64,000 nt of DNA. Source: Escherichia coli (lineage in GTDB: Bacteria; Pseudomonadota; Gammaproteobacteria; Enterobacterales; Enterobacteriaceae). The notes below the pieces were generated by a model that worked only from the letters and a program-made list of their open reading frames with translations, was not told where the DNA came from and did not search any database. Below are positions 39,473 to 39,925 of the stretch, piece by piece; position 1 is the first letter of the stretch, and each line of letters begins with the position of its first letter. The position numbers and the translations under genes were made by a program. The stretch is from assembly GCF_030013595.1 (NCBI RefSeq), contig NZ_CP122768.1. One strand, 5' to 3'.

Positions 39473-39855
39473 GCGTCAACCTTTCAAGTAAATTAGGGTA
39501 CCGGTAGCCAGAGCGGTACAAATGATCCACGCTACTGGAGTCAGAATATGCCGAATACCCTGACATACTGCGATTATTCTCGCAGCCTTATCAGCTCCTT
39601 GTGGGGTTGTCTCAGCCTTAAGAATCAGTTCGCTATCCATTTAGAACCTTTATGATCTCTGCGATTCCCGGAAGCGATTTAGCAACTGCAAACCCTCCGA
39701 TAACTATAAGAACTGCATAAAACATTCTTCTCAGAACCGGACTTCTTTCGAGCAATTTTAGAGCTTCCACAATCCAGTCTCCTCCGCTAAAATTAATCAC
39801 GGAAGACCTCCAAACATACGTAATTATCCCTTGCCTTATTCAAGGTCAGAAACAG

Positions 39856-39890
39856 AAAGCCCCGACTGTTTGCCCAGTCGGGGCTTTCGC
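39856..39890. terminator. bidirectional rho-independent terminator inside the tail module
   Basis: agccccgactg-tttgcc-cagtcggggct perfect 11-bp stem with T-rich flank on the minus strand, directly after the 39926..40639 gene. Confidence 0.55.
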
Positions 39891-39925
39891 TTTATGGATA
39901 GAATTTAAAGTGAAATGAACCGGTA

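Follow-up and report, generated by a model that had tools for sequence, protein, structure and literature searches.

The late genes of the Rac-type lambdoid prophage in a 64-kb stretch of Escherichia coli chromosome (the window, by which we mean the whole stretch analyzed) run on the minus strand, and between two of its tail genes lies a 453-bp gap, at positions 39473–39925, to which no gene has been assigned. Judged by comparison of related sequences, this gap is an unannotated two-gene accessory cassette behind a conserved terminator and leader, an element of an ordinary kind with a somewhat unusual architecture and mobility. The interpretation that we favor, at a probability of roughly 0.8, is that the gap is a horizontally acquired, moron-like accessory cassette set between two baseplate-module genes that stand side by side in related phages, and that it would be expressed by read-through. 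The picture given by an earlier sequence-only reading of the same DNA, a non-coding gap with a terminator, was half right: the open reading frame (ORF) list and the RefSeq record confirm an unannotated 453-bp stretch between tail genes, whereas its minus strand, which had been taken as ORF-free, carries two ORFs (39476–39800) that both evolve as proteins. The elements of the locus, in the direction of late transcription, are as follows.

39926–40639, minus strand: V-like baseplate/spike gene of 237 aa, the upstream flank (ORF list)
39889–39925, minus strand: A/T-rich spacer of 37 nt between the V stop and the hairpin, with the T-rich tail CGCTTTATGG for plus-strand termination (sequence)
39855–39888, no strand assigned: intrinsic terminator hairpin with a 14-bp stem, a 6-nt loop and T-rich tails both ways (scan, folding, covariation)
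39829–39845, no strand assigned: hairpin 2, CCTTG-7 nt-CAAGG, directly after the terminator tail (sequence, leader matches)
39807–39811, minus strand: Shine-Dalgarno (SD) sequence GGAGG of ORF1, 6 nt ahead of its GTG (sequence)
39633–39800, minus strand: ORF1, A-type, 55 aa, GTG start (ORF list, substitutions, hydropathy)
39476–39640, minus strand: ORF2, B-type, 54 aa, with an N-terminal soluble part and a C-terminal transmembrane helix (ORF list, substitutions)
39125–39472, minus strand: conserved 115-aa tail-module gene, the downstream flank (PHROG 7986)

Because chance alone can give ORFs of 54–55 aa, we tested the evolutionary pattern between alleles. ORF2 differs from the allele of E. coli W/LY180 by 28 synonymous and 6 non-synonymous changes in 48 codons, which corresponds to a synonymous divergence (pS) of 0.75, a saturated value, and a non-synonymous divergence (pN) of 0.056; a similar substitution pattern was seen against other alleles. 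For ORF1, the comparison with the allele of viral locus L003 gave a pS of 0.28 and a pN of 0.049, and that with the 65%-identical allele of L092 gave 0.68 and 0.22. On the strength of these substitutions, ORF1 and ORF2 are real genes under purifying selection, and together they occupy 72% of the gap.

The layout of the two genes is compact. The GGAGG ahead of ORF1 is invariant in every A-type allele of the V-W slot, and a second in-frame GTG at codon 11 has its own GGAGGAG. The ATG of ORF2 overlaps the stop of ORF1 by 8 nt (ATGGATAG), and 3 nt separate its stop from the ATG of the 115-aa gene. The ORF1 product combines a conserved N-terminal segment (SGGDWIVEALKL..LRRMFY) with one transmembrane helix. 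Each of the two proteins has a single hydrophobic 17-mer near its C-terminus (mean Kyte-Doolittle value of at least 1.9), with K and R residues commoner on the N-terminal side of the helix; because of this C-terminal helix and the K/R excess before it, both are predicted to be single-pass proteins, tail-anchored in the inner membrane with a cytoplasmic N-terminus. Exact copies of both are present in GenBank as BDI50880.1 (ORF1, labelled ‘hypothetical’) and BDI50881.1 (ORF2, labelled ‘putative bacteriophage protein’), and at 90% identity the ORF1 family comprises 20 homologue clusters and the ORF2 family 14, with named members from E. coli and Salmonella. No Pfam domain was found in any family member, a tblastn search of 50,697 phage records with ORF1 and ORF2 gave no significant match, and a full-text literature search for the ORF peptide motifs found no paper. 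Upon inspection of the ORF1 start, we also noted a 6-codon mini-ORF (39797–39817, minus strand; ATG TTT GGA GGT CTT CCG TGA) that holds the SD sequence of ORF1 and whose stop overlaps the ORF1 start codon (GTGA). It looks like a relic of the start found in another family of the slot, the C-type (GTGTTTGATTTT), and could act as a coupling leader.

The flanks place the cassette in a well-defined setting. Positions 39100–40700 are 100% identical to E. coli O141:H4 P13-6 (NZ_CP080223), and outside the gap the same interval is approximately 95% identical to phage Rac-SA53. The gap fills exactly the interval from the stop of the V-like gene to the start of the 115-aa gene, and the RefSeq record of NZ_CP080223, identical here, has zero annotation within it. 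Its G+C content is 0.437 versus 0.50–0.54 in the flanks, a modest difference. The V-like gene is named ‘phage baseplate protein’ or bppV in relatives, and its protein has weak matches to the GpV apex motif and to TIGR01644.

The hairpin that the sequence-only reading had described as a perfect 11-bp stem closing the gap does exist, and its stem is longer and stronger than described; along transcription, however, it stands at the upstream end, beginning 37 nt after the V stop. Its two arms (39855–39868 and 39875–39888) pair perfectly with nine G-C pairs, the folding energy is approximately −30 kcal/mol (z = −6.8 versus shuffles), and T-rich tails follow in the sense direction (TGTTTCTGAC) and in the antisense direction (CGCTTTATGG). 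Across 21 distinct versions of the stem, 98.6% of cells were paired, compared with 30–65% in slid controls, and both sides had changed in 7 of the 14 pairs, a result matched by 0 of 500 shuffles; at one position G-C, A-U and C-G were all seen. The hairpin is thus a structure maintained by selection. The stem and T-run fit the criteria for an intrinsic (Rho-independent) terminator, and termination here is predicted from sequence. The claim of a strong bidirectional terminator holds as regards a real, conserved element, and its bidirectional action is plausible; the allele of L008 passes the terminator scan on both strands. The same 37-nt spacer is kept across E. coli-clade gaps. Directly after the terminator tail, hairpin 2 belongs to a 26-nt leader that is unchanged in the tail context and in the lysis context described below, and across cassettes five different sequences form a 5-bp hairpin at this position. 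We considered an integron attC-like recombination site and rejected it, as the stem is perfect, G+C-rich and flanked by T-tails, and does not recur behind each cassette.

For the comparison of insertion slots, 80 related viral loci were fetched using the 115-aa protein as query. In 28 loci of more distant relatives, where the 115-aa protein is 60–84% identical, only 0–17 bp lie between the V gene and the 115-aa gene. In 58 E. coli-clade loci, by comparison, the slot measures 244–1528 bp and holds 37 distinct sequences, assembled in varied ways from small single-helix ORFs that belong to at least four families. The A-type family (INFSGGDWIVEALKL...) includes ORF1, the B-type family (KAETTPQGADKAARII...) includes ORF2, the C-type family (...WKFLLIW...IRWW) includes rac58 of Rac-SA53, and the D-type is the fourth. 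The longest variants add a Rha/Ant-like gene after the small ORFs, and only these have a second terminator, after the Rha-like gene. The same hairpin leads every E. coli-clade gap, and gene junctions are tight in nearly all variants; truncated or frameshifted alleles occur in L016 and L057, and L050 has a leftover of 63 nt. Profile-profile comparison of the A and C families produced a colinear 40-column alignment at only 15% probability. By its sequence variety, the slot is a hot spot at which cassettes are reshuffled.

The same module of terminator, leader and small membrane ORF is also found between endolysin R and Rz, in lysis cassettes of lambdoid and Shiga toxin (Stx) phages. Among 31 exact matches of the 26-nt leader in IMG/VR, 21 are in the slot between V and the 115-aa gene and 10 follow endolysin R. 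R-Rz examples include H-19B, GER2, an LT-II prophage and several others, and the module is also present in loci L003, L004, L092 and L096. Using tblastn, we located the C-type ORF in 53 phage records, mostly Stx1a, Stx2a and Stx2c phages, usually unannotated; the lysis region of H-19B, for instance, is annotated as S, R and Rz only. The long and short forms of the C-type (45 and 32 aa) are both annotated in GenBank, and two in-frame starts, both with an SD sequence of their own, are found in the A, C and E types (the last seen in L096). In R-Rz cassettes the stop of the small ORF overlaps the start of Rz, and across contexts the part from start codon to terminator is the best conserved of the cassette.

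As a separate observation, the lysis cassette of this prophage itself has a 44-aa single-helix ORF at approximately 58170–58304 on the minus strand, between an antirepressor-like gene and Rz. Its homologue at the same position in prophage Sp10 of O157 Sakai is the 48-aa ECs_1966, and a 48-aa gene, ECs_5741, takes this position in Sakai Sp15. At 58.3 kb, positions calculated from NZ_CP080223 deviate by 1 bp, so that at least one indel separates the window from that record between approximately 40700 and 58300.

How the cassette might be expressed is suggested by its surroundings. No sense-strand sigma-70-like promoter was found by consensus scan in the window gap or in the alleles of L055 and L008, and essential tail genes lie downstream of the hairpin. 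In addition, a DUF1133 protein of the prophage matches structures of the Q21 antiterminator (6P18 and 6JNX, E = 4e-6) and is probably its late-gene antiterminator; the gene, annotated as DUF1133 only, is at approximately 61420–61960 on the minus strand (L089 33908–34444). Because of the lack of a sense promoter in these scans, the essential genes downstream and the Q21-type protein, we infer late read-through of the hairpin. A scan of 38900–40400 detected no other terminator-like site, so none stands between the stop of the convergent antirepressor gene (ant, 39149) and the hairpin. In the mechanism that we propose, late Q-antiterminated polymerase would read through the hairpin into small genes without a sense promoter of their own, ribosomes would enter at the GGAGG ahead of ORF1 and, through translational coupling, go on to ORF2 and next to the 115-aa gene, and the coupling that the V gene supplies in phages without an insert would thereby be restored. 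The hairpin would halt only polymerase that is not antiterminated, including plus-strand transcripts from the convergent ant operon, and would probably also end a short antisense RNA.

The closest parallel is the moron. In the sense of Juhala and Hendrix, a moron is an additional stretch of DNA, of deviating G+C content, between genes that are neighbors in related phages (PMC3594210), and the gap is likewise an insertion between otherwise adjacent genes with a lower G+C content than its flanks. The gene 15 moron of HK97 encodes a small inner-membrane superinfection-exclusion protein within the tail operon, and has its own promoter and a downstream terminator, so that it is expressed from the prophage (PMC3594210). 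Both are tail-operon inserts of low G+C content that encode small inner-membrane proteins and spread horizontally, whereas the gap cassette has its terminator upstream, no sense promoter that we could find, and combinatorial arrays of small ORFs. The likeness is one of description; the small ORFs match no Pfam family. By analogy, our best guess is that the proteins act on the host membrane, in superinfection exclusion as with HK97 gp15 or in control of lysis timing. We favor an exclusion-like role because gp15 is likewise small, resides in the inner membrane and comes from a moron of a tail operon; the chief alternative is lysis timing, given that relatives occur in lysis cassettes and have dual in-frame starts.

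Several observations weigh against the interpretation as a read-through-expressed, moron-like cassette. Its terminator stands upstream of ORF1 and ORF2 and not downstream as in a moron, so that the cassette works like one yet departs from it in two canonical features, the downstream terminator and, as far as the consensus scans show, the own promoter. The promoter scan was a crude, consensus-based one, which might overlook a promoter that is weak or not of the sigma-70 type; reading by eye, we noted as the best sense-strand candidate one (TTCTGA-17-GATAAT, 8/12) spanning hairpin 2 in A-type leaders, which we count as a point on this side and rejected as a promoter since it is not conserved in the C-type. 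Antitermination across the hairpin is deduced from the Q21 homology. The Prokaryotic Genome Annotation Pipeline (PGAP) leaves ORF1 and ORF2 uncalled, the small proteins have no match in Pfam, PHROGs, NCBIfam or PADLOC (the PADLOC anti-phage defence hidden Markov models having been run on ORF1, ORF2, C-type and D-type proteins), and an exclusion-type function for ORF1 and ORF2 is a guess by analogy.

Other explanations account for parts of these data. Were the gap a non-coding spacer, its terminator would end the upstream tail transcript and an internal promoter would restart the baseplate/fibre genes. The strong terminator directly after V, the absence of RefSeq annotation and the dip in G+C content all agree with this; yet 72% of the gap consists of two ORFs under purifying selection, relatives do without a gap altogether, the same module also stands between R and Rz, a place that calls for no restart, and a Q21-type antiterminator is present. 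The internal promoter for downstream genes, which the sequence-only reading had also offered, found no backing in the consensus scans, as no sigma-70-like site appeared on the operon strand here or in other alleles. On the coding evidence this explanation is largely refuted, and we consider it improbable. More improbable still is that the ORFs are decaying relics of larger genes with only the terminator functional: the truncated or frameshifted alleles (L016, L057 and the 63 nt of L050) would fit, but saturated synonymous sites with conserved proteins contradict it, junctions are tight in nearly all variants, and both families are spread over E. coli and Salmonella.

A more serious contender, which concerns function and which we think unlikely, is that the small proteins are lysis-timing factors of the holin/antiholin type, or are otherwise membrane-active, brought from the R-Rz slot and acting late and not in the lysogen. 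In many lambdoid and Stx phages the R-Rz slot does contain homologous or analogous cassettes, the products are single-pass membrane proteins for which we found no promoter of their own, and the dual in-frame starts with separate SD sequences in the A, C and E types recall the dual-start motif of holins. These phages, however, already have separate holins, the proteins match no holin family in Pfam or PHROG, and their free gain, loss and shuffling is more in keeping with accessory genes than with core lysis genes. The window cassette, moreover, is located in the tail operon, with only its homologues elsewhere following R.

Added to that interpretation, and not strictly competing with it, is the possibility that the 5′ module is also the gene of a cis-antisense RNA of approximately 75–100 nt that represses the small ORF. 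A sigma-70 promoter within the first 12 codons of the ORF would start an RNA that crosses the start codon, the SD sequence and hairpin 2 and ends at the terminator; much like P22 sar or a type I antitoxin, it would block translation or trigger cleavage of the mRNA, might act in trans, and would be overridden by strong convergent late transcription. We put this at somewhat below even odds. It is also the altered form in which the small RNA proposed by the sequence-only reading survives, while no Rfam family reached its gathering score in the gap. The two features involved are the following.

39766–39793, plus strand: promoter-like element TCCACA-16 nt-TAAAAT within codons 3–12 of ORF1 (predicted, 9/12)
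39800–39897, plus strand: hypothetical cis-antisense RNA of approximately 95 nt, proposed from the promoter-like site and the terminator

The element is the only promoter-like site in the gap, and a transcript from it would start near 39800, at the ORF1 start codon. At its 5′ end, the predicted RNA would be complementary to the start and SD sequence of ORF1; hairpin 2, an A-rich linker and the terminator would follow, and it folds as two hairpins. As an independent check, we looked at the 5′ end of the unrelated E-type ORF in L096 and found TGGACA-18-TATACT (10/12), which was the only match over 600 bp, where 0.6 were expected, and which occupies the ORF position of the A-type element (+8 to +35); C-type cassettes have TGnTAAAAT at +8 to +13, and the L006 allele has an improved −35 (TTCACA). 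Synonymous divergence in the A-type is low in codons 2–11 only, with a pS of 0.19 versus 0.78 (L092) and 0 versus approximately 1.0 (L006), while the sequence flanking these codons has diverged on both sides. The high conservation between start codon and terminator across contexts, the five sequences that give the hairpin-2 fold and the U-rich tails in the antisense direction all point the same way, and an antisense RNA would account for a terminator placed upstream of the ORFs. A weak match to Rfam sar (RF00262) covers 39830–39891 (24.0 bits, E = 0.028 in an 801-nt search; below the gathering score of 43).

There is also much to set against it. The promoter matches are modest (9/12 in the window), and A/T-rich 5′ coding ends easily mimic −10 hexamers. 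First cassettes of the B-type and D-type are without the element at that position, and it is weakened in the C variant of L060 and the A variant of L092. The constrained codons also hold the internal SD sequence and second start, which offers another cause for the constraint, and a common ancestry of the A, C and E types is possible, which would make the observations less than fully independent. With Rfam at gathering thresholds over the whole window, nothing was found in the gap; when matches on the gap with E up to 10 were admitted, only sub-threshold sar, rimP leader, ohsC and MicC appeared, all hairpin-driven, and none was repeated in the eight variant loci, the sar match included. The Hfq-CRAC list of small RNAs (sRNAs) from O157 Sakai has no R-to-Rz peak, which is uninformative as the two Sakai lysis regions examined continue differently after R and lack the module. 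EcOnc11 of Sakai, located downstream of Rz, is unrelated.

If these layers are combined, one arrives at a mobile late-operon module of terminator, hairpin and tail-anchored protein with its own cis-antisense RNA, which would move between the R-Rz junction and the V-to-115-aa junction of Rac-SA53-like tails and build arrays there, the RNA silencing it in lysogens and Q-driven transcription releasing late membrane effectors for exclusion, lysis timing or counter-defence. We offer this combination tentatively, as rather doubtful in its entirety.

Comparison with known regulatory RNAs gives a mixed picture. Like sar of the P22 immI region, the predicted RNA would have its promoter inside the 5′ end of its target and would lie over the SD sequence and start codon, and the two are further alike in a 5′ hairpin plus terminator hairpin, a length of approximately 70–100 nt, and a place in a late operon beside antirepressor genes. 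Unlike sar, it scores 24 bits against the 43 needed, and its target is a small membrane ORF where that of P22 is ant. Type I toxin-antitoxin systems, of which symE/symR and hok/sok are examples, resemble the cassette in their hydrophobic ORFs below 60 aa, a possible cis-antisense RNA over the start, prophage residence and tandem arrays. Here, by contrast, a conserved soluble segment at the N-terminus precedes the helix, which is C-terminal, and the ORFs are coupled within a late operon, with no promoter of their own in the scans and without a long 5′ untranslated region; Rfam toxin and antitoxin families did not match the gap (ohsC, E = 0.66).

Two further prophage systems show similar architecture. 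The anti-sRNAs AsxR and AgvB are encoded in lambdoid prophages of enterohaemorrhagic E. coli, at moron insertion sites just downstream of PR′ (PMC4104026). As in our module, they combine a conserved 3′ part (hairpin and terminator) with variable 5′ ends and have shared terminators; they differ in location, the gap gives no Rfam match, and the RNA here is a predicted one, cis-antisense to a coding gene. The IsrK-orf45-anrP locus of Gifsy-1 lies directly downstream of Q (PR′/tR′) and yields a sense-strand sRNA, and the sequence of the orf45 protein is reported not to be conserved (PMC4825925), unlike ORF1 and ORF2, which are under purifying selection. It shares with the gap a terminator followed by a dual-start small ORF coupled to the next gene, with read-through needed, and the longest gap variants likewise place a Rha/Ant-like gene after the small ORFs. 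As a homologue it was rejected on account of its position, the strand of its sRNA, the non-conservation of orf45 and the absence of an isrK Rfam match.

Taken at face value, these results mean that a family of real small membrane-protein genes, carried by prophages of E. coli and by Stx phages and present also in the classic H-19B lysis region, is systematically overlooked by the NCBI annotation pipeline, and that the tail slot is a hot spot at which phages swap small membrane-protein cassettes, always behind the same terminator. If the antisense RNA is true, the module would be a compact, portable switch, silenced in the lysogen and released in lytic growth, and a new class of regulatory RNA for the late regions of Stx phages. 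Should the proteins serve in superinfection exclusion or in the tuning of lysis, they would bear on competition between prophages and on toxin release by Stx phages.

Elsewhere in the window, we noted a few features beyond the cassette. Immediately upstream of the antirepressor gene (38586–39149, plus strand) is an Rfam sRNA-Xcc1 match at 38469–38552 on the same strand (78 bits, above the gathering score), and this pairing is also found in Rac-SA53 and four other loci. A second, opposite-strand insertion at 37275–38306 (plus strand; G+C content 0.35–0.37) encodes hypothetical proteins of 182 and 157 aa, neither of which matched PADLOC; it occupies a slot between the 115-aa gene and baseplate J that has other cargo elsewhere, such as a type I restriction endonuclease in EC11. 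In the head module, a 478-aa protein (53125–54564, minus strand) has the RefSeq name ‘anti-CBASS protein Acb1 family protein’. Rfam also identified the chromosomal or cryptic sRNA genes sok (268–419), RydC (969–1032), STnc490 (17933–18056) and MicC (28216–28331), the last of which, together with ompN and uspF, marks the Rac attachment region.

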